From a virus: 39,563 nt of DNA. The notes below the pieces were generated by a model. The model searched no databases, was not told the DNA's origin, and saw only the letters and a list, made by a program, of their open reading frames with translations. A program made the translations under genes and the position numbers. Numbering within the stretch: the stretch's first letter is position 1; each line of letters begins with the position of its first letter. The stretch is taken from the UHGV virus genome UHGV-0170560. One strand, given 5' to 3'. Shown piece by piece: positions 1 to 39,563 of the stretch.

Positions 1-29
1 CGGCAGCGTCAGATGTGTATAAGAGACAG
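1..29. other. Sequencing adapter remnant (Nextera/Tn5 read-1 adapter with mosaic end); not biological
   Basis: Bases 1-29 CGGCAGCGTCAGATGTGTATAAGAGACAG equal the Nextera transposase adapter lacking its first 4 nt. Confidence 0.9.
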
Positions 30-109
30 CCTTAATACGCAATACATTTACTTTCCTCTTTTGATGATCTTAAATGTCTTATTTTTCGTAATGTGTATAA
101 CAAGGAATA

Positions 110-628
110 GTGATGAAATTTAAAAAATGTCTTCTGCCTGTGGTAATGTTAGCGTCATTCACTCTGGCAGGATGCCAGTCAAATGCTGATGATCATGCCG
201 CCGATGTTTATCAAACCGATCAACTGAATACCAAACAAGAAACTAAAACCGTTAATATTATTTCCATTCTTCCCGCAAAAGTTGCCGTAGACAACTCCCA
301 AAATAAACGAAACGCACAAGCCTTCGGCGCGCTTATTGGTGCAGTCGCTGGCGGTGTTATTGGCCACAACGTCGGGTCTGGCAGCAATTCCGGAACGACG
401 GCAGGTGCAGTTGGCGGCGGAGCTGTTGGCGCGGCAGCGGGTTCTATGGTGAATGATAAAACCTTAGTGGAAGGTGTTTCTCTAACGTATAAGGAAGGCA
501 CCAAAGTGTATACCTCCACCCAGGTGGGTAAAGAGTGCCAGTTTACGACAGGTTTAGCCGTTGTTATTACCACGACGTATAACGAAACGCGTATTCAGCC
601 AAATACCAAATGTCCTGAAAAGAGCTAA
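110..628 (+). CDS. Lipoprotein with glycine-zipper-like Gly/Ala-rich segment (cargo/moron)
   Basis: 172-aa ORF; AAGGAA RBS before tandem ATG; N-terminal signal with lipobox LAGC; GAVAGGVIG...GGGAVGAAAG stretch. Confidence 0.7.
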   Translation: MMKFKKCLLPVVMLASFTLAGCQSNADDHAADVYQTDQLNTKQETKTVNIISILPAKVAVDNSQNKRNAQAFGALIGAVAGGVIGHNVGSGSNSGTTAGAVGGGAVGAAAGSMVNDKTLVEGVSLTYKEGTKVYTSTQVGKECQFTTGLAVVITTTYNETRIQPNTKCPEKS

Positions 629-643
629 TAATCAGGAGGAGTC

Positions 644-1183
644 ATGAAGAAAGTTTTTCTTTGCGCCATCTTAGCTTCCTTAAGCTATCCGGCTATCGCC
701 TCATCATTGCAGGATCAACTCTCTGCTGTCGCAGAAGCGGAACAGCAAGGTAAAAATGAAGAGCAAAGGCAGCATGACGAATGGGTCGCGGAGCGCAACA
801 GGGAAATCCAGCAAGAGAAGCAACGTCGCGCAAACGCCCAGGCCGCCGCTAACAAAAGAGCGGCAACGGCAGCGGCAAATAAGAAAGCTCGTCAGGATAA
901 ACTGGACGCCGAAGCCTCTGCGGACAAAAAACGCGATCAAAGTTATCAAGATGAGCTACGCAGCTTAGAGATTCAGAAACAAAAACTGGCGCTGGCGAAA
1001 GAAGAAGCCCGCGTTAAGCGAGAAAACGAATTTATCGATCAGGAACTGAAGCACAAAGCTGCGCAAACCGATGTGGTGCAATCTGAAGCTGACGCAAACA
1101 GGAATATGACTGAGGGCGGTCGAGATCTGATGAAAAGCGTGGGCAAAGCAGAAGAGAACAAATCGGACAGCTGGTTTAATTAA
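644..1183 (+). CDS. Secreted charged coiled-coil protein (cargo/moron), function unknown
   Basis: 179-aa ORF 15 nt after previous stop with AGGAGG RBS; Sec-type signal peptide ending AIA; K/E/Q/A-rich body. Confidence 0.6.
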   Translation: MKKVFLCAILASLSYPAIASSLQDQLSAVAEAEQQGKNEEQRQHDEWVAERNREIQQEKQRRANAQAAANKRAATAAANKKARQDKLDAEASADKKRDQSYQDELRSLEIQKQKLALAKEEARVKRENEFIDQELKHKAAQTDVVQSEADANRNMTEGGRDLMKSVGKAEENKSDSWFN

Positions 1184-1224
1184 TCGATGTAAGTAACTTC
1201 AAGCCTATAATTCTTGAAGATAAA

Positions 1225-1254
1225 AAACCCTCTGTAGTAACAGAGGGTTTTGTT
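1225..1254. terminator. Rho-independent terminator, potentially bidirectional
   Basis: Stem CCCTCTG (1228-1234) / CAGAGGG (1241-1247), loop TAGTAA, A-run upstream and T-run downstream; lies between convergent genes. Confidence 0.7.
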
Positions 1255-1402
1255 CATTCATAGTGCAGGGATCAAAATCATTCCCACTCAATTATTTACG
1301 GCAACCATAACCAATTGAGTGATAACATTTTTCCAAAACTTCATTTTTTTAGTACCGTTTTATATACCGTCACCGGAAATCAGTACCATGAAAAATGCCA
1401 TG

Positions 1403-1885
1403 CTATCTTGTCAGGGTGTCATACTGTTTTTCGCAGACTCTTCCGGCTTCGGCTGCCCGGTCAGCATACTCTGCCAGTTGTCTGTTTCTCTCGAGAGATT
1501 TGCTGAGCACGTCGGCAAGCAAAACTCCGGTGTCTGCGGCTGACGTCCCAGCGCCGACAATGGCGTTATACTGCCTGAGCTGCTCACGGATGGCAACGAG
1601 CTGTTTCTGCAACCGGCCAGCGCGAGCGGCAGCATCAAGAGCATCATTGCGCGCCTGGTCGATCCTCTGCTGCGCTTCACGTTCATTGATCGCTTTCTCC
1701 TGTTCGTAGTGCTGACGAACTTTCTCATCTTCGGCTTTGCGCTCTTCCTTCGCCTGCACATACCCGGCGTCGTACTGACGGCTACCGTGCACATTCCAAG
1801 CAACAATTCCGGATATGACCAGAACAGCAAGCATCACCACGATAATTAACTGTTTCCAGTATGCTTTTGCGAATGCCCAGATCAT
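1403..1885 (-). CDS. Rz-like i-spanin (lysis)
   Basis: 160 aa; N-terminal TM helix then charged coiled-coil periplasmic domain; ATGA start/stop overlap with upstream endolysin; embedded lipoprotein ORF in +1 frame. Confidence 0.75.
   Translation of the reverse strand: MIWAFAKAYWKQLIIVVMLAVLVISGIVAWNVHGSRQYDAGYVQAKEERKAEDEKVRQHYEQEKAINEREAQQRIDQARNDALDAAARAGRLQKQLVAIREQLRQYNAIVGAGTSAADTGVLLADVLSKSLERNRQLAEYADRAAEAGRVCEKQYDTLTR
1411..1686 (-). CDS. Rz1-like o-spanin, embedded in Rz in alternate frame
   Basis: Internal Met followed by basic n-region and MMLLMLPLALAGC lipobox, Pro-rich mature part; start ambiguous (alternative ATGs at 1647/1644). Confidence 0.5.
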   Translation of the reverse strand: MNVKRSRGSTRRAMMLLMLPLALAGCRNSSLPSVSSSGSITPLSALGRQPQTPEFCLPTCSANLSRETDNWQSMLTGQPKPEESAKNSMTP

Positions 1886-2511
1886 ACCGCCAGCACCTTA
1901 CTGGCAGTGATGTACCGCGCGCGCCGGTCGTCGATGCCGTTCCGGCCACCATTGATAATCAGAGTTACACGTGCAATATCGCCGGTATACTTCATGCATC
2001 CTTTGCTGGCAAAGAACCACGCTGCGCTACGAGCCGCATATTCGTCATGCGCCAGCAATTCAGGGCTCTCCAGCAGGTCAACCTTCAGACCGTTTCCGCA
2101 ATCACGATAGTTATTCAAACCGGTTATCTGGATAAGCCCGCGCCCACGGTAATTCCAGCCATCGCCGGGAGCATTGTTACCCATGCGTTTGCTGTACACC
2201 AGATTGGCGATCGCTCGCTGGCGCTCGAGTGGCAATGGAGGTTCGCCTGCGCGGCGACCCAATGCGTTGGCCTGTCCCTGAGTGAGACGCCCAGCCCGAA
2301 CGAAGTTAGCCAGTCCGGTGACACTGTAGTTGAAATTCTCCTGCAACCGGATGAAACCACCAGACTCATGCCCGACCTGAGCAATAAACATTGCCTGATC
2401 TTCAGCTTTGCTGATACCAAACTCTTTCATCGCAGAAGTTATATGCGAGAACCAGCGTGCGGCCAGCGCCTCGCTAATACCAGCAGCTCGCTGGAATTGT
2501 TTAATCTCCAT
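1882..2511 (-). CDS. Endolysin, glycoside hydrolase family 19 (chitinase-like lysozyme)
   Basis: 209 aa; motifs QVGHESGGF and NYRGRGLIQITGLNNY match the GH19 catalytic signature; sits between holin and Rz. Confidence 0.85.
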   Translation of the reverse strand: MEIKQFQRAAGISEALAARWFSHITSAMKEFGISKAEDQAMFIAQVGHESGGFIRLQENFNYSVTGLANFVRAGRLTQGQANALGRRAGEPPLPLERQRAIANLVYSKRMGNNAPGDGWNYRGRGLIQITGLNNYRDCGNGLKVDLLESPELLAHDEYAARSAAWFFASKGCMKYTGDIARVTLIINGGRNGIDDRRARYITASKVLAV

Positions 2512-2809
2512 GTTTAGACCTCGTTATTTTGAAAATCTGAACGACGTTACCGCGAGTTTTAAGAACCGCAGCAAACATGACAGCGTTGATAATGACCTCA
2601 GATAAATCCACAGCCATTGGCGTGCGTAACCAGATTGCATAGACGACACGAACAGGAATACTGGCCGCAGCAACAATAAGGAAATAAGCAAGCCACCCTC
2701 CCCATCTTCGGTGTTGTGAACCGTTACGCCGGAATGTGACAACACGAATTGCTATGCCAGTACAAATAAGTGCATTGGTGATAAGCAAAAAATACTCATG
2801 CGTTACCAT
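2501..2809 (-). CDS. Holin-like small membrane protein
   Basis: 102 aa with 2-3 hydrophobic helices and charged C-terminus; overlaps endolysin start by 11 nt. Confidence 0.6.
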   Translation of the reverse strand: MVTHEYFLLITNALICTGIAIRVVTFRRNGSQHRRWGGWLAYFLIVAAASIPVRVVYAIWLRTPMAVDLSEVIINAVMFAAVLKTRGNVVQIFKITRSKHGD

Positions 2810-3155
2810 CGCCTTTTCTCCCCGGAATTAACTCGCGTGGATTATCGGAGCGGTGATAGAGCCAGATGCCAATTCGCACTGCGACGATTGCTGACACGAA
2901 TGCGCCGGCAGAGAAAACAATCCCTTTCTCGAAGGAATCCTGTGTGATGGTAGGGATCAGGCTGGCTATGCCGATAAGAATTGATGCTGCTGGTTTGTAA
3001 AAAAGAAGGCCGCAAAGAAAGCTGAGCATCGACAGGAGTACCCGGCGGCGGATCGGATATTCGACAGCAGAGGTAACAAAAATCACAGCTCCAGCAAGGG
3101 AGCCTAAAGCCACCTCAGGAGGTGCTCCTGCTATAACCGCCGCCAGAGAACTCAT
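2796..3155 (-). CDS. Holin/antiholin-like membrane protein
   Basis: 119 aa, several predicted TM helices, first gene of the lysis cassette; overlaps next gene by 14 nt. Confidence 0.55.
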   Translation of the reverse strand: MSSLAAVIAGAPPEVALGSLAGAVIFVTSAVEYPIRRRVLLSMLSFLCGLLFYKPAASILIGIASLIPTITQDSFEKGIVFSAGAFVSAIVAVRIGIWLYHRSDNPRELIPGRKGDGNA

Positions 3156-3315
3156 GCTAAGCCACTGATTTAAAGACTCATTGGTTATCTAAACTGACAT
3201 AAAAACCACCGTTTAATGTGCATGAAGAACCACCTTAGTATGGGGTTCACCATGCATATTAAACCATATATGAATAGTTATTACCTCTACATCAATTAAA
3301 TCACTATCATATAAA

Positions 3316-5901
3316 TTACATCTGGTTATTAATTTTCATTTCAATATTTTTAATGCGCTCAACCAATCCTCGCATAATGAAACGATCAAGTTCTTGATCG
3401 CGGAATTGCCACAAATCTCCTGCTTTCTTAACTAATTTTTTTTCACCAGTATTCACAGGAACAATGAATTTTTCACCATTTTGATCCGTAATTAACTCAT
3501 CTTTAATGACATCTTCATATACATCATCCCATTTGTCATACCCTATAAATCCATAATCTCGCCAGTCCAGGCCCTCATCCTCTAAAACAGCAATAACTGC
3601 CTGAACAGTGGTGCCAGAGTGCAACCTTTTAGAATCATCATCAATCCATGTCCAGAAACCTAGCAGATCAGCCACTTTAATTGCTGCATTAATTTCAGAT
3701 TTGGTGAATCCGCGAATCGGGTCTTTAAGACGACCATCTGAACTTGACTGGGTTCCTCCGGCAAAATAACCAATGTTATATCGTAGTGATGCGCTACCTA
3801 TATTTGAAGTGGCATCAGCTCCAGGAGTGATTCCCCCTGATGTTGCTATTTGCATTGCTGGAGTAGATCCAGACCCATCAGGTCTGAACTGTAATTGACC
3901 TACACTGTTGTATTGTGTTCTCATGAACCAAGATGTAGCATTGCCATTACTGAGCAGGCCAAGAATAGCATCAGAACCAGATGGAGCCGATACAGTGTAC
4001 ATTCCTGTCTTAGTGAGTGACGTCATGGTTTTTCCATCCTTGCTGACCAATAGTCTGTCGGAGCTTGCATCCATCATCACTTTCCATCCTGTAGACCCAT
4101 CAGCAGCATTCTTCGTAAACTGAATTGATGCGTCACCAATATTCCCATCAGAGCCAAGAATTGCAACGGTATAACCGCCTGCTGGGTCTTTACCCACAAC
4201 TCCAAATCTACCGTTTAGCGGATCGCCTGAAACTATTATTTTTACAGGAATCACTCCGGCAAAATTGTCATTAAATATCTGAGAAATATAATTCATGCGC
4301 ATGCCATAAAAACTAACACCTCTCTTTACATTCTCAGAACCAATAAAAGTCGGAATATCTGAATTTGTAATACCATAAGGTGATTGCTCTACCACACCAC
4401 CATAAAACTGGATGTTGGATGCGTGATCAAATTCTAATGCATGATTAGCTCTGGTTCTAAACTCACAGCCATAAAAGTAATGCCCATTTATTTCAGCGGA
4501 TGTCGCATTAACATCACCATCTATATAAAGGCATCGCCATGTGTTTGCGCTAGAGTAATAAGAAACAAGCTCTTCATGAGACATTGATGCGCGACTGTGG
4601 TGATCAAGGGTATAAATACCACATTTATCTACTCTAGTTCCGCTGAGACCATAACTTGCAGGCCCAGTGTTTGAACCAAGAATTGCTAAACCGACTCGCC
4701 CCATAGTTGACCCACCAGTAATGGTATTGTAATCAGGGTCATCGTTTCCTTGCTTTGACTGAATTATTGTACCTGCTTTTGAAAAGTATCCGAATACACA
4801 AACATCCTCCTGAAGATTTCTTGCAGAGTCATCGTAATAAACCCCACACTCATAATCTGCACGTTGGTCTTCATCAGGTTTTGTGTGATTACCGATGGAA
4901 TCATAACAAATCATGTCTTGAACCACGGCAATGCCTTTAAGGACAGATCCACTTGAACCATATTCTGGAGAAAGAACTCTCACGCAATATCGAACACTTG
5001 CGAAATGATCGTCTCTGTTATCTGTAGTAGCTATCTTTGTTCCTGCTCCAGAAAATATAAACGTAGCACCAGGCATATTTTCTTTTCTACCTTCAGCAAG
5101 AAAGAATTTGTCATCATCAGTACCAAATCCAAGAACAGGAGAACCATTACCAATGAATCGAAAATCACCAGGTATTTCTATACCATCAGAGAATCGATAA
5201 ACCCCATCAGGAACAAAAAAAGTTTTCTTTCCAGATGCAAGCAAAGCCTGCCACTGCGTTAAGTTGTCCGTTTTATAGTCACCTTTTAATCCAAAATCGG
5301 TTATGCTGACTGTATCTCGCATCTTATCCTGGAACGTTCGATATATCGCACCAGAACCATACTGAATAAACCAACCAAAACCACCAACAACTCCGGCGAT
5401 TGCAGCATCAACATAATTACGCATTGAGCGATTATTTACAGCATCCTGCTCAAGTGATGGATCTGCAAGGTTAGAAATTCTGTTTTGCTTTGCATCGTAA
5501 TATTTTGCAAGCAAAGATGGTTTCATCAATGCACGTCTGAACCACCCAAAACATTGCTGGATCAGCATCGTCAGGTAGTCAAAAGCATCTTCATGCACTT
5601 CGGGGAAAAATTTTCCCTGATTGCGAAGGTCTGTCTCCTGCACTACATCAAGCACACGATCTATCGTAATTCGCCATCCAGCAGCAAGCGGCGACGGAAG
5701 AACAACAGAACCGCCACTATAAGTGCCCGCCCCAGTTACCGTATAACCGGTATCCAGAACCAATTCTGTTACGTTCCCGTTCAGGTCAGACACCTGAACA
5801 ACCAGGTCGGATTTTTTGAAAATACGGAAGGTATACGGAAATGATGTCGTAGCGCCGTTACCGGTGTATTCGTTGTGGTCAACTTCGGTTGAGACCGTCA
5901 T
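3316..5901 (-). CDS. Tail fibre/tailspike with T7 gp17-like N-terminal adaptor domain and C-terminal intramolecular chaperone (peptidase S74-like) domain
   Basis: 861 aa; N-terminal ~110 aa resemble the T7 gp17 adaptor region by recollection; C-terminal ~140 aa begin with SSDGRLKD (S-D-x-R-x-K autoprocessing motif); central part AT-rich. Confidence 0.8.
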   Translation of the reverse strand: MTVSTEVDHNEYTGNGATTSFPYTFRIFKKSDLVVQVSDLNGNVTELVLDTGYTVTGAGTYSGGSVVLPSPLAAGWRITIDRVLDVVQETDLRNQGKFFPEVHEDAFDYLTMLIQQCFGWFRRALMKPSLLAKYYDAKQNRISNLADPSLEQDAVNNRSMRNYVDAAIAGVVGGFGWFIQYGSGAIYRTFQDKMRDTVSITDFGLKGDYKTDNLTQWQALLASGKKTFFVPDGVYRFSDGIEIPGDFRFIGNGSPVLGFGTDDDKFFLAEGRKENMPGATFIFSGAGTKIATTDNRDDHFASVRYCVRVLSPEYGSSGSVLKGIAVVQDMICYDSIGNHTKPDEDQRADYECGVYYDDSARNLQEDVCVFGYFSKAGTIIQSKQGNDDPDYNTITGGSTMGRVGLAILGSNTGPASYGLSGTRVDKCGIYTLDHHSRASMSHEELVSYYSSANTWRCLYIDGDVNATSAEINGHYFYGCEFRTRANHALEFDHASNIQFYGGVVEQSPYGITNSDIPTFIGSENVKRGVSFYGMRMNYISQIFNDNFAGVIPVKIIVSGDPLNGRFGVVGKDPAGGYTVAILGSDGNIGDASIQFTKNAADGSTGWKVMMDASSDRLLVSKDGKTMTSLTKTGMYTVSAPSGSDAILGLLSNGNATSWFMRTQYNSVGQLQFRPDGSGSTPAMQIATSGGITPGADATSNIGSASLRYNIGYFAGGTQSSSDGRLKDPIRGFTKSEINAAIKVADLLGFWTWIDDDSKRLHSGTTVQAVIAVLEDEGLDWRDYGFIGYDKWDDVYEDVIKDELITDQNGEKFIVPVNTGEKKLVKKAGDLWQFRDQELDRFIMRGLVERIKNIEMKINNQM

Positions 5902-6059
5902 GTTAAATCTCCAGATAGTCGCAGCACCCGTTGCGCCGCATATCTGGTTATTCTATTACCTGAAAAACCACATATGGATAGATAACCCATAAATACGAAA
6001 AGATATTACCTTTCAGGTGATTTGCAAAACGTGCTGGATAGCAAACAAATTATTTGATA

Positions 6060-6075
6060 CTGTATATTTATACAG
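6060..6075 (+). promoter_or_regulatory. LexA (SOS) box
   Basis: CTGTATATTTATACAG = CTGT-N8-ACAG with AT-rich spacer, flanked TA..TT, about 20 nt upstream of the 6097 start codon. Confidence 0.65.
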
Positions 6076-6096
6076 TTATTGCATGGAGAAGATAAG

Positions 6097-6354
6097 ATGC
6101 AGCAGTATCACTATCCACTGGAAGACGGATTTACCGAAAGGATTCACACGCCGGGAGGCGTCAGATCACTGGTGGAGGGATCGCACTTGATGAAATTACT
6201 CCGGGATCTCGATAAGGATGGATTTAATGTCGATGGCCCACTTGCCGAACTGACTGCACTGATTAACTACGTCACCAGCTCACAGATGTCTATGCGGGAT
6301 CTGCAAACACATCTCGACTATTGTGCCGAACAATTACGAAAACAAACCAGATAA
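6097..6354 (+). CDS. Small protein paralogous to the C-terminal domain of the downstream antirepressor
   Basis: 85 aa from ATG with GGAGAA RBS (track ORF begins at an upstream TTG); aligns with the last ~65 aa of the 6670..7380 protein (shared pattern IH.P.GV..L.E.S.LM.LL..L..DG..V.G..AELT....Y.......RD.QTH..Y). Confidence 0.6.
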   Translation: MQQYHYPLEDGFTERIHTPGGVRSLVEGSHLMKLLRDLDKDGFNVDGPLAELTALINYVTSSQMSMRDLQTHLDYCAEQLRKQTR

Positions 6355-6490
6355 GGTTTGCAATTACCAAGTGGAGTGCTTATATTTACCTTTGAGGTGA
6401 ATTTACATCGCACTCCTCTTATGCCATAGTAATCGGGCACTGGCAAAATCCAGTGCCGGGATTGGCGTCCCGGGTTACTAAGTGGCGCAT

Positions 6491-6514
6491 ACCACGCCAG
6501 ACGTGGTTTTTTTA
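6491..6514 (+). terminator. Rho-independent terminator-like hairpin
   Basis: Stem ACCACG/CGTGGT with loop CCAGA followed by TTTTTTT. Confidence 0.6.
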
Positions 6515-6669
6515 TGCGTTAAGCACAGCTATATCCGAATTATGGTGGGCTGGGCAGGGGTCCGAAAGGACGCCGGTACCACTTAGGCCGGTACGCCAAC
6601 CTTGTCCAGTTCACCACCAGTAATTGGCGTTGCGGTGGTGATTAAAATCACTAAGTGGAGATAACCACC

Positions 6670-7380
6670 ATGGCTAATGCTCAAACTGCCATCTTCAAAT
6701 TTGAATCTGTTAACCCTATCCGTTCCATCATTATCGATGGCCAACCATGGTTTGTAGCCCAAGACGTTTGTAGTGCGCTGCGTATCCAAAACGTCACCCA
6801 AGCACTTGAAAAACTGGATGATGATGAAAGGTCTATGTTCAACATAGGGCATGAACATCGTGCAATTTTTGACAGCCGAGTAAAAGAGATCAACATCATC
6901 TCCGAGTCAGGCCTCTACACACTGATCCTCCGCTGCCGCGACGCAGTGACACCAGGCACTATCCCCTACCGCTTTCGTAAATGGGTTACAGGTGAGGTTC
7001 TTCCTCAGATCCGCCGCACCGGAAGTTACATTAAAAACTCGCTCCCGCAGGAAGAACGCATAAAGATGGTTGCCGACCAGGTAGCCAACGCCACGGCGTC
7101 AGCAGTAATGCAGGCGATGAAGATAGAGAACAAAACCTACAGCGCCCCGCTGCAGCCCGGCTACCGCAGCCTGATTCACTCGCCGTCTGGTGTTCTCGGC
7201 CTGACGGAGAACTCACTGCTGATGAATCTGCTGAACCAGTTACAGGACGACGGGCACGACGTATCGGGCGCGGCGGCGGAGCTGACCACCATGTTCTGCT
7301 ACATCGTCGGTGTGAGTAAATGCCTGCGTGATATCCAGACCCACGCGGAATACATCAACGACAAGGCAGGGTTCTTCTGA
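6670..7380 (+). CDS. Antirepressor (Bro-N domain protein)
   Basis: 236 aa from ATG preceded by GGAG; N-terminal Bro-N hallmarks (WFVAQDVCSAL, ISESGLYTLIL, FRKWVTGEVLPQIRRTGSY). Confidence 0.8.
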   Translation: MANAQTAIFKFESVNPIRSIIIDGQPWFVAQDVCSALRIQNVTQALEKLDDDERSMFNIGHEHRAIFDSRVKEINIISESGLYTLILRCRDAVTPGTIPYRFRKWVTGEVLPQIRRTGSYIKNSLPQEERIKMVADQVANATASAVMQAMKIENKTYSAPLQPGYRSLIHSPSGVLGLTENSLLMNLLNQLQDDGHDVSGAAAELTTMFCYIVGVSKCLRDIQTHAEYINDKAGFF

Positions 7381-7504
7381 CGGGCGGCGGCACAGGGATG
7401 TGCCTTTAAATAATTCTGTACGATTGCAGACAGGGGGGTGAATAGAGTACTATTACCTTACGGGTGATCCATAGCGATTAGGCACCGATACAGGAGGAGC
7501 CCAC

Positions 7505-7537
7505 ATGAGAAAATTTGACGAGTACGAAGGCGTTTAA
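7505..7537 (+). CDS. Possible 10-codon leader peptide (MRKFDEYEGV)
   Basis: Strong RBS CAGGAGGAG 5-8 nt upstream; located between an operator-like palindrome and a terminator hairpin; too short to call confidently. Confidence 0.25.
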   Translation: MRKFDEYEGV

Positions 7538-7555
7538 CATTCGGATAGTTTAATG

Positions 7556-7579
7556 ACGGGGCCATTAGGCCCCGTTTTC
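7556..7579 (+). terminator. Rho-independent terminator / possible attenuator
   Basis: Stem ACGGGGCC/GGCCCCGT with loop ATTA followed by TTTT; immediately upstream of the 7597 gene. Confidence 0.6.
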
Positions 7580-7596
7580 ATGTCTGGAGACAGTTT

Positions 7597-8136
7597 GTGT
7601 TAAGTGAAGAAATGCAATTTGCCATGGCTGTGGCTCAAATCGTAAGTGCAGTCGCGGTTTCGCTTGGCTTGTTCATAGCTATCGCTACTATTATTTATAA
7701 TGTAAATACAGCGAGAAAAGTACACACTTCAGTATTCCTTGGTGAAAGCAGGTTTGATGTAGATTATAAGAAAGGCCTATCTACTATGCGCCGCATTCAC
7801 GAATCGAACAAATCATTCCGCTCTTATATGTATCCAAGCAATGGGCAGGCTGATCTTACGGATGAAGAAAAGATAGAGAAGAGAGAAATAATTTACTGTC
7901 TAGGTTTCTACGAACGCATGGCTGTGAGCGTGAAGCGGAAAACTTATGATGAGACCATGATTAAGGAAGTATTTTACAGCTCCGTTGTAAATAACTATCA
8001 GATTGCGCTACCTCTTATACAAGCTATTAGAGAAAAAGAAAACATAAACACATATTTTAAAGAATATGAATGGTTGGCAACACGATGGAAGGATTGTCCA
8101 TTGAAGGATAAATCCCCATGGTACAAGTTTTGGTAA
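7597..8136 (+). CDS. Membrane-anchored accessory protein; candidate superinfection-exclusion/defence protein
   Basis: 179 aa, GTG start with GGAG RBS; N-terminal TM helix; markedly AT-rich relative to the structural genes; position matches the P22 immI/sieA neighbourhood next to the tailspike. Confidence 0.55.
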   Translation: MLSEEMQFAMAVAQIVSAVAVSLGLFIAIATIIYNVNTARKVHTSVFLGESRFDVDYKKGLSTMRRIHESNKSFRSYMYPSNGQADLTDEEKIEKREIIYCLGFYERMAVSVKRKTYDETMIKEVFYSSVVNNYQIALPLIQAIREKENINTYFKEYEWLATRWKDCPLKDKSPWYKFW

Positions 8137-8158
8137 GCCCGCAGCGCGGGCTTTTTTG
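8137..8158 (+). terminator. Rho-independent terminator
   Basis: Stem GCCCGC/GCGGGC with loop AGC followed by TTTTTT. Confidence 0.75.
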
Positions 8159-8229
8159 TGGACGAAACAAAAGTCAGTGCTACACTCATTGACGCCACAT
8201 TGAGGTGGCTTATAGATGGAAATTTCACA

Positions 8230-8391
8230 ATGAAAAAAGCATTTGCTGCACTGTTCGTTTTGTTGTCTCTGGTAGCTTCAACTCAGGCCTTTGCCGGTCG
8301 TTGTCAGCACGACAGCGATACTGCCGCTGACGGCTCCCGCTGCGGTGGGCGTTCTGCGGATTCCCGCCCGGGCGGCGGTGGCATTCGTTAA
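8230..8391 (+). CDS. Small secreted peptide, function unknown
   Basis: 53 aa from internal ATG; clean Sec signal MKKAFAALFVLLSLVASTQAFA; two Cys in the ~31-aa mature part. Confidence 0.45.
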   Translation: MKKAFAALFVLLSLVASTQAFAGRCQHDSDTAADGSRCGGRSADSRPGGGGIR

Positions 8392-8413
8392 AAACAAGGC
8401 CGCGAAAGCGGCC
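8391..8413 (-). terminator. Rho-independent terminator for the minus-strand virion operon
   Basis: Stem GGCCGC/GCGGCC with loop GAAA; on the minus strand it is followed by a T-run. Confidence 0.6.
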
Positions 8414-8422
8414 TGTGACATG

Positions 8423-8719
8423 TCACGTTCCTTTTCTGAATGATAGCCGTTCGAAAAATGATGACATTCCACCGCAGACAATAGCAAAGATGATCCCACC
8501 AAAGAAGAGAAGGCCAGCCTGCCACCACTCCCACCGCCATACATCCACAGCACCAACCATACCAACAATCGCTCCAACAAATGGAATATAGCTCACGATG
8601 AAAGCAATGGGGGCTGCAATTATCCAGTGCAATCCCCACCATGATTCAAGCCCAGCCATAATTGCTGCCAACTGAAAAAGGCCAACGACGATATAAACAA
8701 TGAATCCTATCGCTTGCAT
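8423..8719 (-). CDS. Small integral membrane protein
   Basis: 98 aa, 3 hydrophobic helices, GGTG RBS; last gene of the minus-strand virion operon. Confidence 0.55.
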   Translation of the reverse strand: MQAIGFIVYIVVGLFQLAAIMAGLESWWGLHWIIAAPIAFIVSYIPFVGAIVGMVGAVDVWRWEWWQAGLLFFGGIIFAIVCGGMSSFFERLSFRKGT

Positions 8720-8731
8720 GTAGTCACCTAT

Positions 8732-8905
8732 TTACCCAGTAAAAATCAGAGGCCTCCCCTCAATAAGGCTTGCAACAAGAACTATTCCCTGCACAACAAA
8801 GATGAACCAGCAAATAGCTTGAGTCTGAGGGTTAAGAAAATATTTGTAGCGGTCAATAAATAACAACCCACCAGAAATTATCACACTCAAAATAATTAAA
8901 AACAC
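8732..8905 (-). CDS. Possible small membrane protein (57 aa, GTG start)
   Basis: Below the track cutoff; my own translation gives VFLIILSVIISGGLLFIDRYKYFLNPQTQAICWFIFVVQGIVLVASLIEGRPLIFTG with AGGAAG RBS upstream. Confidence 0.3.
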   Translation of the reverse strand: MFLIILSVIISGGLLFIDRYKYFLNPQTQAICWFIFVVQGIVLVASLIEGRPLIFTG

Positions 8906-8914
8906 AACACTTCC

Positions 8915-11389
8915 TTATTGCGGAGTGACATCCTGAGGTCGCCACCAGTATGTCTGATTAAACTCTTTCTTCGAACGTTGCTCCATTTTACGCAAATAGC
9001 CTGGTGAAAAATACTCCTGCATCTGGTTAAAGATCATATGATCGAGAGCCGCCTTTAAGTACCAGAGATTCGCACCTGGCATCAAACCTTTCCCCAGCTT
9101 CACCAGATCACCACCAGTCTGCTCACTCTTCCCTTCCACAGCATTTAACGGTATGCCCTGAGCAATCTTCACTACGTCATCAACCAGACCAGCTACCGGG
9201 CCAAGCATCGACGCCAGCGCGCCGCTTCCGTACCTAGTGTGATCTGACAATAAAAAGTCACCGTAAAGGCCAAGGCCACCACCTTTCAGTAGAGCACCAA
9301 GCCAGAATTTTGCGGCACCTTCTCCTGTCATCTCTCGAGGATTACGACCAGACGCAAGGTCGTTAAGTTGCTGCGACAAAGCGCCAAGAATGGTCGTACT
9401 GGCAATAAACGTCGCAATATATGCCGCACGCCCACCAGCAGACGGCATACTCATAGCGCGTGACCAGTGACGCATAACAACCGAGATAGGGAACGATTTA
9501 AACAGGAAAACACTTCTCGTTAATTCACCTTTCCATGTTCCACGCTGAATACCAGAACCGGTTATCAGTTGCTCACGTGCTCCCGGTGTAATAATAGCCA
9601 TATCAACTTCTTCAGTTACGGCACCGAGCAGTTTACGCATTGCCTCAAATTTCACTCGTTCAGGCTCACCAAGATGTTTAACTGCTGAATCAGGGATACG
9701 CATAATGCTTTCCGGTGTCAGCATCGTATTATTACCGTTCCCCCAGTCCTCCTGTTGCGCCAGCTTCCATACGCTCCAGTCTGTGTCAGTAATCCCTTTG
9801 CTTTTCAGGATACGAAAATCAGAGTCATCGAGGCTACGAAGGTCTGGTGTCCGTGACACTACTTCTCCCAGGCTTCCCATCATGGTTACGCCATAGGCGC
9901 GCTTGTGCGCATCTGACCATGCTGTAAGCCCACTGGCACGCATTACCGCCGTTGCCGCCCAACGAGACACAGACGGCCCCATATTATCCATCGCCCAGCG
10001 GTTAACGCTGCCAAGTAGAGATTCCATCGCCAGGCCAGCGCGGCGCGCCCGCGCAAGCTCAGTACGGTTCGTTGGGTCCATAGCTTCAAGCTGGTTGCGA
10101 AATAACTGGTTCATTGGAAGGTTGGTAACCTTCGCAGACAGATACATGGTTCCAAGATCAGAGAACGATGACAGCAACGCGGATCCGAGTCTGCTGGCAA
10201 CCAGCCAGTTGCGGATATTGTCAGACCATCGCGCGATGTGCGGATTCGCTACAGGCTGTGTTTTTCCGGAAATAAAGTTGTACAGATTCTCTGTGTTGTT
10301 CGCCAGCCGCTCGACTTTACCGGTTTTACTCGGGTTAGCTGTTGCCGTTTCTGCCTTAACCTGATCAAGAAGGGAGCGGAAAACATGATCGGGGTTTGGG
10401 CCATATGTTTCCACCAGCGCAATATCTTTACTGATACCTTCCAGGTGACCGACCATGATTTCCCATAGAGAGCGATCGCCATAAAGTTGCTGATATTGCA
10501 GATAGGAATCTGCATCTTTGAAATGTATCTGTCGTGATGCATTACCACGGTTAGCACGTACGCCGGAAATTCGCATTCCGGTATCAGTAAGCTTATTCAG
10601 CCCACCAGTAGCGATCGTGTTATAAGCCTCTCCAAGAAATGCAGACAACTCGGCATCGTTCATCAGTTGTCCATCGGCTCGGGTATAATATTTGCGATCC
10701 AGCTTACCTATAACATCGCTAACCCATTTATCTTTTGATACCGCCCCAACCTTTTCCATAGAATGATGTTGAGGGATCCCCCAGTTTTCGAGATAGCCAA
10801 TGTCCCCACCAGCATCATTAAACCGGCGGCGCAGTAGATCTGTCACTTCTCTCCACGCCTTAGCACCTTTTCTTGCTTTAGCATTGCCAGTATTTTGCCC
10901 TCGCATTTCATATACCAGGTCACGCACGCCCGCTTCATCTTCAAACAGGCCAAAAAAGCGAGGATCAACTGCTTCAAATGCCTCCTGCAATTGACTCAAT
11001 GCATAATCACGAGTGGCTTTTGTTCTGGATTCAACAGAGAGGAAATTCGATTTACCGTCTGCATTAAAAGCAATAGTACGGTTAAGAGCGCCAAGTTTCC
11101 CATCAGCCCCTTGATAGCTATTGATAAATTTATCCAATCTCTGACGTGCGGCTATAGTGAGGGCCACACGACGTTTCTTTAATGCCGCTTCTCGCTGTAA
11201 TTCTTCAGATGCCAATTGTGCTGCACGATACAACCGTTCTGATTCGGAAAGTTGTCGCCACGACATCGGGTCATCACGAGCAATGGAGCGCATATTTCGA
11301 TAAATGCGGTCTTCAATGTTCTGTATTTCTCGCGCCGTTAACGTGCGCTGCGCCGCCTGCTGGACCGCTTGTATACATTCCTGTCTCAT
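8915..11389 (-). CDS. Internal virion/ejection protein (T7 gp16-like position)
   Basis: 824 aa; translationally coupled within the long minus-strand virion operon. Confidence 0.65.
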   Translation of the reverse strand: MRQECIQAVQQAAQRTLTAREIQNIEDRIYRNMRSIARDDPMSWRQLSESERLYRAAQLASEELQREAALKKRRVALTIAARQRLDKFINSYQGADGKLGALNRTIAFNADGKSNFLSVESRTKATRDYALSQLQEAFEAVDPRFFGLFEDEAGVRDLVYEMRGQNTGNAKARKGAKAWREVTDLLRRRFNDAGGDIGYLENWGIPQHHSMEKVGAVSKDKWVSDVIGKLDRKYYTRADGQLMNDAELSAFLGEAYNTIATGGLNKLTDTGMRISGVRANRGNASRQIHFKDADSYLQYQQLYGDRSLWEIMVGHLEGISKDIALVETYGPNPDHVFRSLLDQVKAETATANPSKTGKVERLANNTENLYNFISGKTQPVANPHIARWSDNIRNWLVASRLGSALLSSFSDLGTMYLSAKVTNLPMNQLFRNQLEAMDPTNRTELARARRAGLAMESLLGSVNRWAMDNMGPSVSRWAATAVMRASGLTAWSDAHKRAYGVTMMGSLGEVVSRTPDLRSLDDSDFRILKSKGITDTDWSVWKLAQQEDWGNGNNTMLTPESIMRIPDSAVKHLGEPERVKFEAMRKLLGAVTEEVDMAIITPGAREQLITGSGIQRGTWKGELTRSVFLFKSFPISVVMRHWSRAMSMPSAGGRAAYIATFIASTTILGALSQQLNDLASGRNPREMTGEGAAKFWLGALLKGGGLGLYGDFLLSDHTRYGSGALASMLGPVAGLVDDVVKIAQGIPLNAVEGKSEQTGGDLVKLGKGLMPGANLWYLKAALDHMIFNQMQEYFSPGYLRKMEQRSKKEFNQTYWWRPQDVTPQ

Positions 11390-11394
11390 TTAAT

Positions 11395-13197
11395 TTAACC
11401 TCTCAAGAAACACGCCACAGCAACATCAAACAGGCTGGAATCCTGTATTGCCTGCTCACTTTCCCTGTTCGCTTCATCCAGTACTTCACGCGCACTGCGC
11501 GATTGTGGATTACCATCATCATCCAGCACGGTGATTATCATGTCCGGAGATTCAAGCAGCGAGTCTTCAGCTATACGCAGATCAATATCTCCTGCCGGAT
11601 CTGCCATCATTTTTTGTTCTGTCTGTTGCAATATCTTACCGGGCTCAAAAGGAGCTACTTCGTCTGGCGTCCTGACCTCTGCTGTTTTATAGAATGAAAC
11701 AGCCTGAGCATTAAGTTCACTTTCTGCCTGCTGTCGCCGTGCCAGTTCTGCTCGAGCTTCAAAAAACTGACCTCCAGGCTCGTGCGGCGCCAACGCGTTA
11801 CGGGAAAATTCCAGGCGTTCTTGTGCCTGCCGGATTCGTTGATCAATATCGCGAAGTCTGGCCTGTTTATCTGATCGAGCACGAGACAAAGCTTTACCGC
11901 TACCGGTTGGCTCTTCTGCAAGAATTTGTGCACGCTGTTCAGTGAGATTGTCGATAATTCGTTGGCTATTAGCGATTTCAGACTGGTAAACCTGTCTATC
12001 GCCACGCGGCAAAAGCTGCGCAGCCTGTTCTTCAAGCAACCGATTTTCGATAGCGCGCGCCGTTACTCCATCATCTACAGATGACAGAGCCTCATTAACT
12101 GCCTGAGACAGCAGATTCTTGCGCCCAGGAATTTCACTGAAAGATGCAGACTCAACAATGCTGGCAACGTCTACAGGTCTCCCCTGGCTAACATCAGACA
12201 TAGCTTTTCGCAGAGCCTGAATGTGAGAATTGCGCGAAAGCACGTTGATCGGCACGCCGGGAGCAATATCAATTTCAGCATGATGAGCGGCATTCGCCGC
12301 CAGTGCAGCATCGATATCAACTGGTGAAAAATTTGGTGCGCTTGTAGACTCGCCGCGAGAGTTAATAAATCTGCCGACACCACCAAACGCCACCCCAAGA
12401 ACAGCATCAATAGCAATTGCCTGTCGATCCAACACATCATACTGGTTAGCCATTTCGCTATAGCCACCATCACGAAGCGTTTTTGCAGTAAGCCCACGCT
12501 GTGCCATACCGAACGCAATATTTGTACCTGCGGCATAGGCAATATCTGGCGTTGCACGTACTGCTGTTGCTGCGGCGCGTCGCACTGAACTCTCACTCGT
12601 CCGCGCAAGCTGAGCCGCCACACCTTCCGCCAGCGCACCACCAGCACGTAACCCGAGGCTCATAGGGATCAGTGTTCCGGCACCAGCAGTAATACCCTGC
12701 ACTAATCCCGCTTCCTGCGCCGTCCTGAAATCAACACCCTGTGCTGTCAGCCGTTCAAACTCAGAAAAACCCTGTAGCGAAGTTACCGCCGCAGCACCTC
12801 CGACCGGACCACCGAGCGTTGTACCGATAACAGCCTGCCCGCCCATATCGAACAACCCATAAAGAACCTGCCCGGCGGTTCCGGTTGTCGCGGCATCAGG
12901 CGTCAGCCGCTTAACCTGCTGCTCTGCTAGTTTTCTCTGCTCGGCAATGTATGAAACTGAAGTGTCATTGAGCGAGGTGTTTTCGTTAACAAACTGAGCA
13001 ATCGGGGATACGATTTTATCCATCCCTGCCCAGAGCAACTGATCAGGCTTTGCCACCAGCCCGGAGTACAAACCAGACAATGCCGCTCCTACAGCATTGT
13101 CGAAAAAACCAACATCGCTGTTAAAGCCCGCTGGATTTGATGCTGCTTCGTCAAGTTGCTGATTCTGGTTTACTGGATTAAGGCCAAAGTAACTCAT
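11395..13197 (-). CDS. Internal virion/ejection protein
   Basis: 600 aa, Ala/Gly-rich N-terminal part and coiled-coil C-terminal part; start abuts upstream stop. Confidence 0.65.
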   Translation of the reverse strand: MSYFGLNPVNQNQQLDEAASNPAGFNSDVGFFDNAVGAALSGLYSGLVAKPDQLLWAGMDKIVSPIAQFVNENTSLNDTSVSYIAEQRKLAEQQVKRLTPDAATTGTAGQVLYGLFDMGGQAVIGTTLGGPVGGAAAVTSLQGFSEFERLTAQGVDFRTAQEAGLVQGITAGAGTLIPMSLGLRAGGALAEGVAAQLARTSESSVRRAAATAVRATPDIAYAAGTNIAFGMAQRGLTAKTLRDGGYSEMANQYDVLDRQAIAIDAVLGVAFGGVGRFINSRGESTSAPNFSPVDIDAALAANAAHHAEIDIAPGVPINVLSRNSHIQALRKAMSDVSQGRPVDVASIVESASFSEIPGRKNLLSQAVNEALSSVDDGVTARAIENRLLEEQAAQLLPRGDRQVYQSEIANSQRIIDNLTEQRAQILAEEPTGSGKALSRARSDKQARLRDIDQRIRQAQERLEFSRNALAPHEPGGQFFEARAELARRQQAESELNAQAVSFYKTAEVRTPDEVAPFEPGKILQQTEQKMMADPAGDIDLRIAEDSLLESPDMIITVLDDDGNPQSRSAREVLDEANRESEQAIQDSSLFDVAVACFLRG

Positions 13198-25320: not shown

Positions 25321-25397
25321 GTGGCATTAGCTCAGTTGGACAGAGCAACCGCCTTCTAAGCGGTTGGCCGCAGGTTCGAATCCTGCATGCCACGCCA
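25321..25397 (+). tRNA. tRNA-Arg (anticodon UCU), CCA encoded
   Basis: Hand-folded cloverleaf: acceptor GTGGCAT/ATGCCAC, D-stem GCTC/GAGC, anticodon stem ACCGC/GCGGT with loop CTTCTAA, T-stem GCAGG/CCTGC with TTCGAAT loop; argU-like. Confidence 0.9.
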
Positions 25398-39520: not shown

Positions 39521-39522
39521 AC

Positions 39523-39563
39523 CTGTCTCTTATACACATCTGACGCTGCCGACGATCGCATAA
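39523..39563. other. Sequencing adapter remnant (reverse complement of Nextera read-1 adapter plus 8-nt index-like tail); not biological
   Basis: CTGTCTCTTATACACATCTGACGCTGCCGACGA followed by TCGCATAA. Confidence 0.9.

Follow-up and report, generated by a model that had tools for sequence, protein, structure and literature searches.

SlyB is a stress-induced lipoprotein of the outer membrane that makes rings round lipid nanodomains (PDB 7OJF/7OJG). Its paralogue, rather than orthologue, YfgH has been shown by fractionation to reside in the outer membrane (preprint 10.64898/2025.12.22.696046), and this localisation has been described together with SDS/EDTA phenotypes (preprint 10.64898/2025.12.22.696046; PMC3219608). 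The same preprint reports that YfgH has a stabilising effect on the outer membrane and outer-membrane proteins when cells face detergent/EDTA or biogenesis stress, and its AF3 models depict YfgH as SlyB-like rings round lipid/protein nanodomains. The genetic suppressors differ, being clsA for yfgH and the Mla pathway for slyB. In that study YfgH alone complemented a yfgH deletion, which means that additional YfgI is not a strict requirement for YfgH, and yfgI is never mentioned; for SlyB no yfgI-like partner gene has been described in the literature cited here. Elsewhere yfgHI has been handled as one operon or locus, and srgI-srgL (T0351-T0350) of Salmonella Typhi, likewise an operon, has been described as its orthologous pair; srgI-srgL is SdiA/AHL-regulated in Typhi, whereas an E. 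coli yfgHI reporter is not SdiA-regulated (PMC11619404). Mutants of yfgI are hypersensitive to nalidixic acid (PMC3536626). On the phage side, phiV10, epsilon15 and vB_EcoP_ZX5 use attgagtgggaatgatt, at the guaA 3' end, as their attP/attB core, which has been published and verified by experiment (PMC9782041).

The DNA analysed here (the window) is the whole 39,563-nucleotide stretch UHGV-0170560, in which two genes for exported proteins precede a phage lysis cassette. The original prediction read this pair chiefly as secreted prophage cargo, a moron that might be a lysogenic-conversion factor, and gave as an alternative that the genes belong to the host and flank a prophage end. In our analysis the two genes prove to be yfgH and yfgI, which belong to the normal E. 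coli chromosome and are not phage cargo, so that the prediction is borne out in its alternative and not in its main reading. The features of the region are as follows.

1..29, no strand: adapter sequence (…AGATGTGTATAAGAGACAG), non-biological, with its reverse complement at 39521-39553
30..109, plus strand: remainder of the host yfgG-yfgH intergenic region, cut down to 80 bp from about 310 bp (in K-12 locus numbering yfgG ends at 7482 and yfgH starts at 7793)
110..628, plus strand: yfgH, GTG start, 172 aa, outer-membrane lipoprotein and SlyB homologue, annotated by RefSeq at the identical position in EC21 and ETEC4068
634..639, plus strand: Shine-Dalgarno AGGAGG for yfgI, 4 nt before the ATG, read from the sequence
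644..1183, plus strand: yfgI (RefSeq name), 179 aa, DUF5384, Sec signal peptide
1224..1251, no strand: host bidirectional intrinsic terminator (A-tract, 12-bp stem, T-tract), identical in K-12
1276..1292, no strand: 17-bp att core AATCATTCCCACTCAAT, the int-distal prophage junction, 93 bp beyond the yfgI stop
1293..1402, no strand: phage-derived att arm, holding AATTGAGTG (1313-1321), which is inverted relative to CACTCAATT (1285-1293)
1403-1885, minus strand: Rz-like DUF2514 gene of the prophage lysis cassette
1882-2511, minus strand: GH19 endolysin gene of the same cassette
2501-2809, minus strand: holin gene of the same cassette
2796-3155, minus strand: putative holin gene of the same cassette

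The stretch from 30 to 1400 finds matches in 5422 of 5426 complete E. coli genomes, at a median of one place per genome and at 0 places on plasmids, and the genes there are annotated as yfgH and yfgI; the homology search that had been proposed for deciding between phage and chromosomal origin thus points to the chromosome. In K-12, which is phage-free at this site, the gene order is ppk-ppx-pdeF-yfgG-yfgH-yfgI followed by the convergent guaA-guaB, and no mobility genes lie beside the pair. The window equals K-12 b2505/b2506 in protein lengths (172 and 179 aa), gene order, 15-nt spacing, terminator and guaA 3' end, and each protein differs from its K-12 counterpart by one residue, V12A in YfgH and Q102E in YfgI. 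With a probe running from the 3' end of K-12 yfgI to the 3' end of guaA, scored as a contiguous match, the junction between yfgI and guaA was found to be uninterrupted in 4463 of the 5426 complete genomes. The host-prophage junction, probed with window 1143-1443, is contiguous in 524 complete genomes, while matches in the remaining genomes stop at window 1292 and then run into guaA. The synteny ppx-pdeF-yfgG-yfgH-yfgI-guaA also holds in Escherichia species, Shigella, Citrobacter and Pseudocitrobacter. No observation in the window speaks against a chromosomal status of the pair. Inside the window the host context is thin, just 80 bp upstream of yfgH, and the chromosomal case therefore rests on the comparison of complete genomes. 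The yfgH promoter was probably cut off by the contig end, where the upstream region stops; a promoter scan of window 1-1500 returned no sigma-70-like site.

The prophage ends at the att core. In the alignment, the window and K-12 part at 1292/1293, within the final codons of guaA, of which 1278-1292 retain a left-behind copy of four and the stop (IEWE*, minus strand). Positions 1276-1292 match the published core exactly, and the Uetakevirus prophages epsilon15, phiV10 and vB_EcoP_ZX5 at the guaA 3' end have this same 17-bp core and the same attB. The 17-mer is the longest exact repeat common to both prophage ends in EC21 and occurs as a single copy in K-12. Its second copy in EC21 lies at the other prophage end, at the guaA stop beside the integrase, which is the duplication that characterises a Uetakevirus inserted at guaA. 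For phiv142-3 and HEMP4, both phage records, the match to the window has its limit exactly at 1294. Because the prophage begins at 1293, yfgH and yfgI are no part of it, and the phage does not carry them. Compared with K-12, the chromosome is broken by the prophage 93 bp after yfgI, and guaA has been moved about 39 kb away, outside the window. The named core genes of E. coli, the phage integration site and the att core are all already known and published.

The lysis cassette (1403..3155), which is context and lies outside the host pair, consists of genes that have identical, RefSeq-annotated counterparts in EC21 and ETEC4068. Across the lysis, tail and internal-protein region, identity to HEMP4, phiv142-3 and phiV10 amounts to 95-97% in the parts that match, and these parts make up 61-73% of window 1294-12000; the coverage is partial because the tailspike region of this prophage differs from theirs. 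Unlike phiV10 and TL-2011b, the prophage is without the O-acetyltransferase gene oac, and its integrase end is missing from the window. An Rfam search found no structured RNA in the yfgH-yfgI region, its matches being confined to the prophage. A Uetakevirus like phiV10, epsilon15 or ZX5 has inserted here, through recombination by its tyrosine integrase, at the 17-bp attB that overlaps the guaA stop codon. The gene guaA normally converges on yfgI, and the contig has caught the host flank together with the prophage.

As the original prediction had recognised, the context is truncated by adapters. The sequence at the window ends (1-29 and 39521-39553), which we take to be the Nextera transposase adapter, raises the question of whether the host-phage junction is a chimeric join made in library preparation or assembly. 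Against the adapters at both contig ends stand the identical junction, contiguous in 524 complete genomes and at 99.7% identity in EC21, and the position of the join, which falls exactly at the published att core. We therefore regard an artefact as scarcely credible.

Some features of the pair do resemble those of a moron or lysogenic-conversion cassette that is expressed in the lysogen and modifies the envelope through serum resistance or exclusion. The pair adjoins the lysis cassette and, as predicted, is encoded on the opposite strand to it (plus, against minus for the genes at 1403-3155), with a hairpin terminator behind it. The hairpin, with its 12-bp stem at 1224-1251 after yfgI, is real, but it is not the pair's own: it is a host bidirectional terminator, common to the convergent yfgI and guaA in uninterrupted strains and kept here on the yfgI side of the prophage. 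For guaA, a near-identical hairpin comes from the phage. Both proteins match PHROG families, and the sequence TL-2011b, deposited as a phage (JQ011317 and NC_019445, one sequence under two accessions), holds the pair at 99.4% identity. These are the only phage records with a copy above 99%, but TL-2011b was recorded from a prophage and extends past its end, wrongly taking in about 3.5 kb of host DNA with yfgH-yfgI, yfgG and part of pdeF, and the PHROGs family of YfgH is mislabelled "DNA methyltransferase". YfgH also has a sub-threshold similarity to TraT (Pfam 28.0 bits versus 31; PDB E 0.011). The pair, however, lies on the host side of the att core at 1276-1292 and occurs in 5422 of the 5426 E. 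coli genomes, 4463 of which have an empty attB, whereas phiV10, HEMP4, phiv142-3, PAS61 and typing phages 9 and 10 have no copy. The known conversion gene of the family, oac, sits between tailspike and holin and not beyond Rz, and that slot is empty here. Lysogeny by ZX5, moreover, left serum sensitivity and stress phenotypes unchanged (PMC9782041). In strains without the phage, K-12 among them, both genes sit side by side on the chromosome as a conserved pair. The original prediction had named this very observation as one that would refute it, and prophage cargo is thereby refuted and extremely improbable. A search of phage resources for homologues would have given the idea false confirmation, through TL-2011b and PHROGs; it is the comparison with empty-site genomes that settles phage versus chromosomal origin.

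We are accordingly close to certain of the following account: window 30-1292 is E. coli chromosome with the core operon yfgH-yfgI and its terminator, a Uetakevirus prophage at guaA starts at 1293, and YfgI would act as a partner of YfgH.

The first protein had been described as a glycine-zipper-type lipoprotein at 110-628, and this description is correct. YfgH has the lipobox LAGC at residues 19-22, with Gln following the Cys, that is, a lipoprotein signal with a non-Asp +2 residue as in outer-membrane sorting. The Gly-zipper 2TM domain PF05433 scores above its cutoff (E 4.8e-8, 33.2 bits versus 24.2), with the 2TM hairpin at approximately residues 72-113. YfgH and SlyB (PDB 7OJF) align over their full length, with YfgH residues 10-163 covered at E 4.1e-10, and the two share the lipobox, the Gly-zipper hairpin and a C-terminal domain of small size. 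YfgH is a Lol-sorted outer-membrane lipoprotein of the SlyB type whose glycine-zipper hairpin inserts in the outer membrane. The F-plasmid protein TraT (PDB 9FS5, 9E2V) is, like YfgH, an outer-membrane lipoprotein with a Gly/Ala-rich membrane segment, and there is weak similarity over YfgH residues 56-161. YfgH was rejected as a member of this complement-resistance and surface-exclusion family, the PF05818 score of 28.0 bits being below the gathering cutoff of 31 and the PDB TraT chains giving E 0.011-0.14; the resemblance is distant. TraT confers complement resistance and surface exclusion, whereas neither an exclusion nor a serum-resistance role is known for YfgH.

The second protein had been described as a signal-peptide coiled-coil protein at 644-1183. 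The signal peptide holds, with cleavage between AIA and SS, and the mature part of roughly 159 aa is highly charged, all-helical and periplasmic. The coiled coil is not demonstrated: no heptad signal at 3.5 residues rises above shuffles (fraction 0.27), and the a/d positions reach an occupancy of no more than 4-5 of 8. A hydrophobic periodicity of 3.6 residues (fraction 0.003 of 2000 shuffles) fits an amphipathic helix instead. An ER/K single-alpha-helix was also rejected, with 11 i/i+4 salt-bridge pairs against a shuffle expectation of 11.8 ± 3.0. YfgI matches PF17358 (DUF5384) across 145 of 145 profile positions (E 7.3e-61, 204.9 bits versus a cutoff of 25). Its C-terminal half, residues 94-179 with WF at the end, is conserved. 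The AlphaFold2 monomer is one continuous helix over residues 2-178 (mean pLDDT 85.8, pTM 0.37), with pLDDT above 90 for roughly residues 40-140, and an 11-sequence profile found no relative of solved structure at E up to 1. Export by Sec takes YfgI to the periplasm, where it forms a long charged helix of about 159 residues. A search of PADLOC-DB with YfgH and YfgI gave no match at E up to 0.01, and a known anti-phage defence system was rejected on this ground.

Only 15 nt separate the yfgH stop from yfgI, and the pair therefore makes up an operon. In 25 of 25 informative genome loci the DUF5384 gene directly follows one for a YfgH-like protein, and likewise in P7 and pZF34-7kb. Throughout the family YfgI is invariably encoded behind a yfgH-type gene, 3-20 bp downstream, and from this gene linkage we infer that it is the periplasmic partner or accessory of YfgH. 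The nalidixic-acid hypersensitivity of yfgI mutants may then reflect an outer-membrane permeability defect rather than a role in DNA repair.

Diverged copies of the pair are found elsewhere. P1-family phage-plasmids, including P7, SJ46 and RCS47, carry a pair that is 69% (YfgH) and 47% (YfgI) identical, located between tubA and the c4-icd-ant immunity region, and about 188 PLSDB plasmids of 82-146 kb, which match like P1-family phage-plasmid records, carry it as well. In P7 the genes are Upf50.5/Upf50.0 (also in SJ46, RCS47 and JL22), and they resemble yfgH-yfgI in that a Gly-zipper lipoprotein is followed 3 nt on by a signal-peptide DUF5384 protein. These P7/P1-like copies lie inside the phage-plasmid, between tail-tube genes and the immI region, and are truly mobile, unlike the copy in the window. 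A 7.5-kb mobilizable ColRNAI (ColE1-type) plasmid also carries the pair, with a YfgI homologue 61% identical. There is thus a grain of truth in the idea of cargo, in that diverged paralogues occur on P7/P1-like phage-plasmids and on a small ColE1-type plasmid, at other loci than the window copy. Escherichia sp. E1V33 has a second, decayed copy beside an integrase fragment, and Kluyvera, Xenorhabdus, Pantoea and Acetobacteraceae carry the pair in unrelated surroundings. In Salmonella its distribution is patchy, being present in S. Typhi and absent from S. Typhimurium (PMC11619404).

The patchiness outside Escherichia and Citrobacter, the plasmid copies, the PHROG families and the low GC3 of yfgH (0.43, against 0.53-0.60 in its neighbours) together suggest that the module was once mobile. 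It is conceivable, though on present evidence rather unlikely, that the pair is an anciently acquired mobile envelope module that was fixed by guaA in Escherichia and Citrobacter while sister copies still circulate, a history that would be compatible with the chromosomal account given above. The diverged pairs on phage-plasmids and the ColRNAI plasmid, the decayed copy near an integrase fragment in E1V33, the scattered occurrence in Salmonella, the unrelated contexts in the four other taxa and the GC3 of yfgH all argue for such an origin. The synteny, however, is stably kept in every Escherichia species and in Shigella, Citrobacter and Pseudocitrobacter, the K-12 pair is without flanking mobility genes, the deviation in GC3 is modest and transfer may have run from chromosome to plasmid or the reverse.

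Within the account that we prefer, that of a core chromosomal operon beside a guaA prophage, the finding offers a modest lead. On chromosomes, phage-plasmids and small plasmids alike, YfgI shows strict linkage to YfgH, and the sole mechanistic study of YfgH leaves YfgI out. The "DNA-damage" label of yfgI may be a permeability artefact. More speculatively still, and with considerable doubt, the yfgH-yfgI family could be a module of two obligate components that fortifies the outer membrane, with a ring lipoprotein like SlyB and a periplasmic helical partner of about 24 nm, and that has been repeatedly captured by P1/P7-family phage-plasmids and ColE1-type plasmids and would serve there in TraT-like exclusion or envelope protection, as a true lysogenic-conversion cassette. 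If this were true, the chromosomal copy in the window would be a domesticated or ancestral version of the module.

The two genes at 110-1183 are yfgH and yfgI of E. coli, host genes that lie beside the end of a Uetakevirus prophage, and this copy of the pair is not phage cargo. The features at this end of the window, together with the adapters, are as follows.

1-29 and 39521-39563: adapter at both contig ends (the true insert is 30-39520)
110-628, plus strand: YfgH ORF, 172 aa
644-1183, plus strand: YfgI ORF, 179 aa
1224-1251: hairpin after yfgI, 12-bp stem with an A-tract and a T-tract on its flanks
1403-1885, minus strand: Rz-like phage lysis gene
1882-2511, minus strand: GH19 endolysin, phage lysis gene
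2501-2809, minus strand: holin, phage lysis gene
2796-3155, minus strand: holin, phage lysis gene
3316-5901, minus strand: tailspike

The original prediction described a glycine-zipper lipoprotein and a signal-peptide protein on the strand opposite to the lysis genes, followed by a terminator, and this description is accurate. YfgH has the lipobox LAGC at residues 19-22, with Gln as the next residue, and a glycine-zipper 2TM domain (PF05433, 33.2 bits against a cutoff of 24.2). Its stop codon lies 15 bases from the yfgI start, and an AGGAGG Shine-Dalgarno sequence lies 4 nt ahead of the yfgI ORF. YfgI has a Sec-type signal peptide (…YPAIA/SS) and matches DUF5384 over its full length (PF17358, E 7.3e-61). 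Each protein differs from its K-12 counterpart by one residue.

In our analysis window 30-1400, annotated as yfgH/yfgI, was found in 5422 of 5426 complete E. coli genomes, with a median of one per genome and no plasmid copies among these matches. In K-12 MG1655, where the phage is absent, the gene order is ppk-ppx-pdeF-yfgG-yfgH-yfgI, followed by the convergent guaA-guaB, and only 92 bp separate the yfgI stop from the guaA stop. The pair are therefore conserved chromosomal neighbours in phage-free strains, which confirms the alternative that had been offered, that of host genes beside a prophage end. A 301-bp empty-site probe, from the K-12 yfgI 3' end to the guaA 3' end, was contiguous in 4463 of the 5426 genomes, and a 301-bp prophage-junction probe (window 1143-1443) in 524 of them; in genomes without the junction, the match to the latter ends at base 150 (window 1292), beyond which the annotation is that of guaA. 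About 440 of the 5426 have neither the empty site nor the window's junction, and these presumably carry other insertions between yfgI and guaA. Inserts at this position of ~0.8 kb in E. whittamii (L012), ~4.8 kb in Escherichia sp. E1V33 (L013) and ~2.7 kb in Citrobacter sp. ANG330 (L021) fit the same pattern, that of a general hotspot for integration, as the guaA 3' end appears to be.

The boundary itself can be placed precisely. The window and K-12 are nearly identical through the terminator to 1292, within the last guaA codons (…IEWE*, minus strand), and unrelated past it. The complete genome EC21 has the same junction at 99.7-99.9% identity, and its other prophage end, ~39 kb off, reads guaA-integrase-DUF1382-MT-A70 methylase; the window lacks the integrase, the DUF1382 gene and guaA that complete the EC21 prophage. 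The longest exact repeat common to both EC21 ends is the 17-mer AATCATTCCCACTCAAT at window 1276-1292, present in K-12 as a single copy spanning the guaA stop. On the other strand it reads attgagtgggaatgatt, verified by PCR and Sanger sequencing as the attP/attB core of vB_EcoP_ZX5, and the same core, with attB at the guaA 3' end, has been reported for phiV10 and epsilon15 (PMC9782041). On the phage side, HEMP4, phiv142-3 and phiV10 match 61-73% of window 1294-12000 at 95-97% identity, and the match to the phiv142-3 and HEMP4 records starts or ends exactly at 1294. It follows that yfgI ends 93 bp outside the prophage. The att mapping and the empty-site counts thus rule out the prophage moron cassette that was the headline of the original prediction. 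The locus is already known: yfgH and yfgI are named core genes, and the phage family, attB and core are published.

By way of the core, integration restores the 3' end of guaA. The EC21 GuaA still terminates in IEWE*, and a 15-nt leftover copy of these codons lies at window 1278-1292. The host hairpin remains beside yfgI and faces the minus-strand lysis operon as well; the terminator scan scored it on that side. A comparison of window 1228-1250 with about 6800-6830 of the guaA/integrase side of EC21 (L006) shows a phage-supplied guaA hairpin, 45 bp past the core, with 10-bp stems identical to those of the host, AACCCTCTGT…CAGAGGGTT, the loop alone differing. This indicates that the phage-host similarity extends past the 17-bp core. 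A 9-bp inverted repeat, CACTCAATT (1285-1293) and AATTGAGTG (1313-1321), bridges the edge of the core and the phage arm; its two halves may serve the integrase as core-type binding sites.

In this phage family the known conversion gene is the O-antigen-modifying oac, which lies between tailspike and holin in phiV10 and TL-2011b. The O-acetyltransferase gene is not present in the window prophage, where the tailspike-holin interval (3156-3315) is only ~160 bp and empty. No effect of ZX5 lysogeny on serum sensitivity, stress responses or virulence was measured (PMC9782041). Elsewhere in the prophage, Rfam matches to isrK (67.7 bits) and C4 antisense RNA (66 bits) at 6437-6513 and 6538-6621 lie directly upstream of an ORF at 6655-7380 and form a P1/P7-style immI-like antirepressor control module, and a phage-borne tRNA lies at 25321-25394 (73.3 bits).

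Phage databases could mislead on the origin of the pair. In a tblastn search of YfgH and YfgI against 50,697 phage records, 13 matched, two of which are the TL-2011b prophage (JQ011317, NC_019445; 99.4%). In this 44.8-kb record the annotated genes continue after the Rz-like spanin with yfgI, yfgH, yfgG and a small ORF and reach part of pdeF, that is, ~3.5 kb of host flank (41251-44784) beyond the att core at 41251, so that host genes within a "complete phage genome" are listed as phage genes gp54-gp57. The TL-2011b authors themselves place the phage in guaA (PMC3293862). The other 11 records are P7 and P1-like phage-plasmids with a diverged pair (69% and 47% identity). The proteins also match the PHROGs families phrog_1277 (YfgH, E 1e-110) and phrog_1094 (YfgI, E 1e-103). 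In PHROGs v4 the former is labelled "DNA methyltransferase", though the family is that of YfgH-like glycine-zipper lipoproteins, and the same label in RefSeq phage records (NC_019445 gp55, NC_050152 upf50.5, NC_031129, NC_042128) looks like a propagated mis-annotation.

Diverged pairs on phage-plasmids and plasmids show that such a cassette can be cargo elsewhere. In P7 (AF503408) the pair upf50.5/upf50.0, at 5508-6572 with 3-nt spacing and noted in the annotation as similar to K-12 proteins, is flanked on one side by tubA, with the late promoter LPsit, and on the other by the c4-icd-ant immunity region. YfgI relatives occur on 200 PLSDB plasmids. Approximately 188 of these are non-mobilizable replicons of 82-146 kb whose relatives fall under 60% identity and whose matches resemble those of the P1-family phage-plasmid records (47-49% identity). 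Eight others have relatives at 60-80% identity, including the 7.5-kb mobilizable ColRNAI plasmid pZF34-7kb, in which the pair lies at 836-1943, with a YfgI homologue of 61% identity and no annotation of the DUF5384 gene. A second diverged pair in E1V33 (L023, 4707-6228), with a YfgI homologue 61% identical and a YfgH homologue shortened to 92 aa, immediately precedes a partial tyrosine-integrase ORF; it is probably what remains of a decayed mobile element.

The DUF5384 family has very few members (237 proteins at E ≤ 1e-3 among 5.8 billion), and the matches with a named source are almost all from Enterobacteriaceae, save a few short fragments assigned to other taxa. A one-genome-per-species scan gave 26 loci, with gene order determined by scripted tblastn. 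The order ppx-pdeF-yfgG-yfgH-yfgI-guaA(-guaB) is kept in E. coli, Shigella, E. ruysiae, E. whittamii, E. albertii and other Escherichia species, and in Pseudocitrobacter, Citrobacter and unnamed Enterobacteriaceae. Wherever a locus has enough DNA (25 of 25), the DUF5384 gene is directly preceded by a YfgH-like gene, and this includes the non-syntenic copies of Kluyvera, Xenorhabdus, Pantoea, a Pseudomonas sp., Acidisoma and Acetobacter. S. Typhi has the pair (srgIL, SdiA-regulated) and Typhimurium is without it (PMC11619404).

YfgH gives a full-length alignment with SlyB (PDB 7OJF, E 4.1e-10). It fractionates with the outer membrane and has been modelled as SlyB-like rings; its deletion worsens LptD, Bam and Lpt depletion, with clsA mutations as suppressors (preprint 10.64898/2025.12.22.696046), and causes SDS/EDTA sensitivity, more NPN uptake and OMP loss (same preprint; earlier genetics PMC3219608). 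In that preprint ΔyfgH is complemented by YfgH alone, and yfgI appears nowhere. YfgI had been proposed to be a signal-peptide coiled-coil protein; the signal peptide stands and the coiled coil is weak. The AlphaFold2 model (28-sequence alignment; mean pLDDT 85.8, pTM 0.37) has one unbroken helix over residues 2-178. Hydrophobicity repeats every 3.6 residues (shuffle fraction 0.003), the heptad periodicity of 3.5 was not seen (shuffle fraction 0.27), and the a/d positions are about half occupied. With 39% D/E/K/R and neither Pro nor Cys, YfgI is, in this model, a long amphipathic, strongly charged helix. E. coli alleles of 179, 177, 175, 173 and 170 aa result from in-frame deletions in the N-terminal Ala/Lys-rich part, the variation falling in Ala-rich codons 65-77 (window 836-880; hexamer repeat AGCGGC x3.2 at 859-877). 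In rarer alleles (165 and 160 aa) other helical stretches are deleted.

Three observations lead us to infer that YfgI acts with YfgH: the translational closeness and constant co-inheritance of the two genes, the conservation of the C-terminal half of YfgI (residues 94-179), and an N-terminal part whose length differs even between E. coli alleles. In the periplasm, after export, YfgI would be a long helix, and its ~159 residues would span ~24 nm if this were single and straight. Hydrophobic quinolones are kept out by an intact LPS barrier. Given this and the predicted export of YfgI, a permeability defect may be a simpler explanation of the selective nalidixic acid sensitivity of a yfgI mutant (7% survival), which has been read as a DNA-damage phenotype (PMC3536626). 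In Typhi, an sdiA-dependent change in nalidixic acid or UV sensitivity was not found (PMC11619404). The remaining value of the locus lies in the database caveats and in the suggested partnership of YfgH and YfgI, a pair with mobile paralogues.
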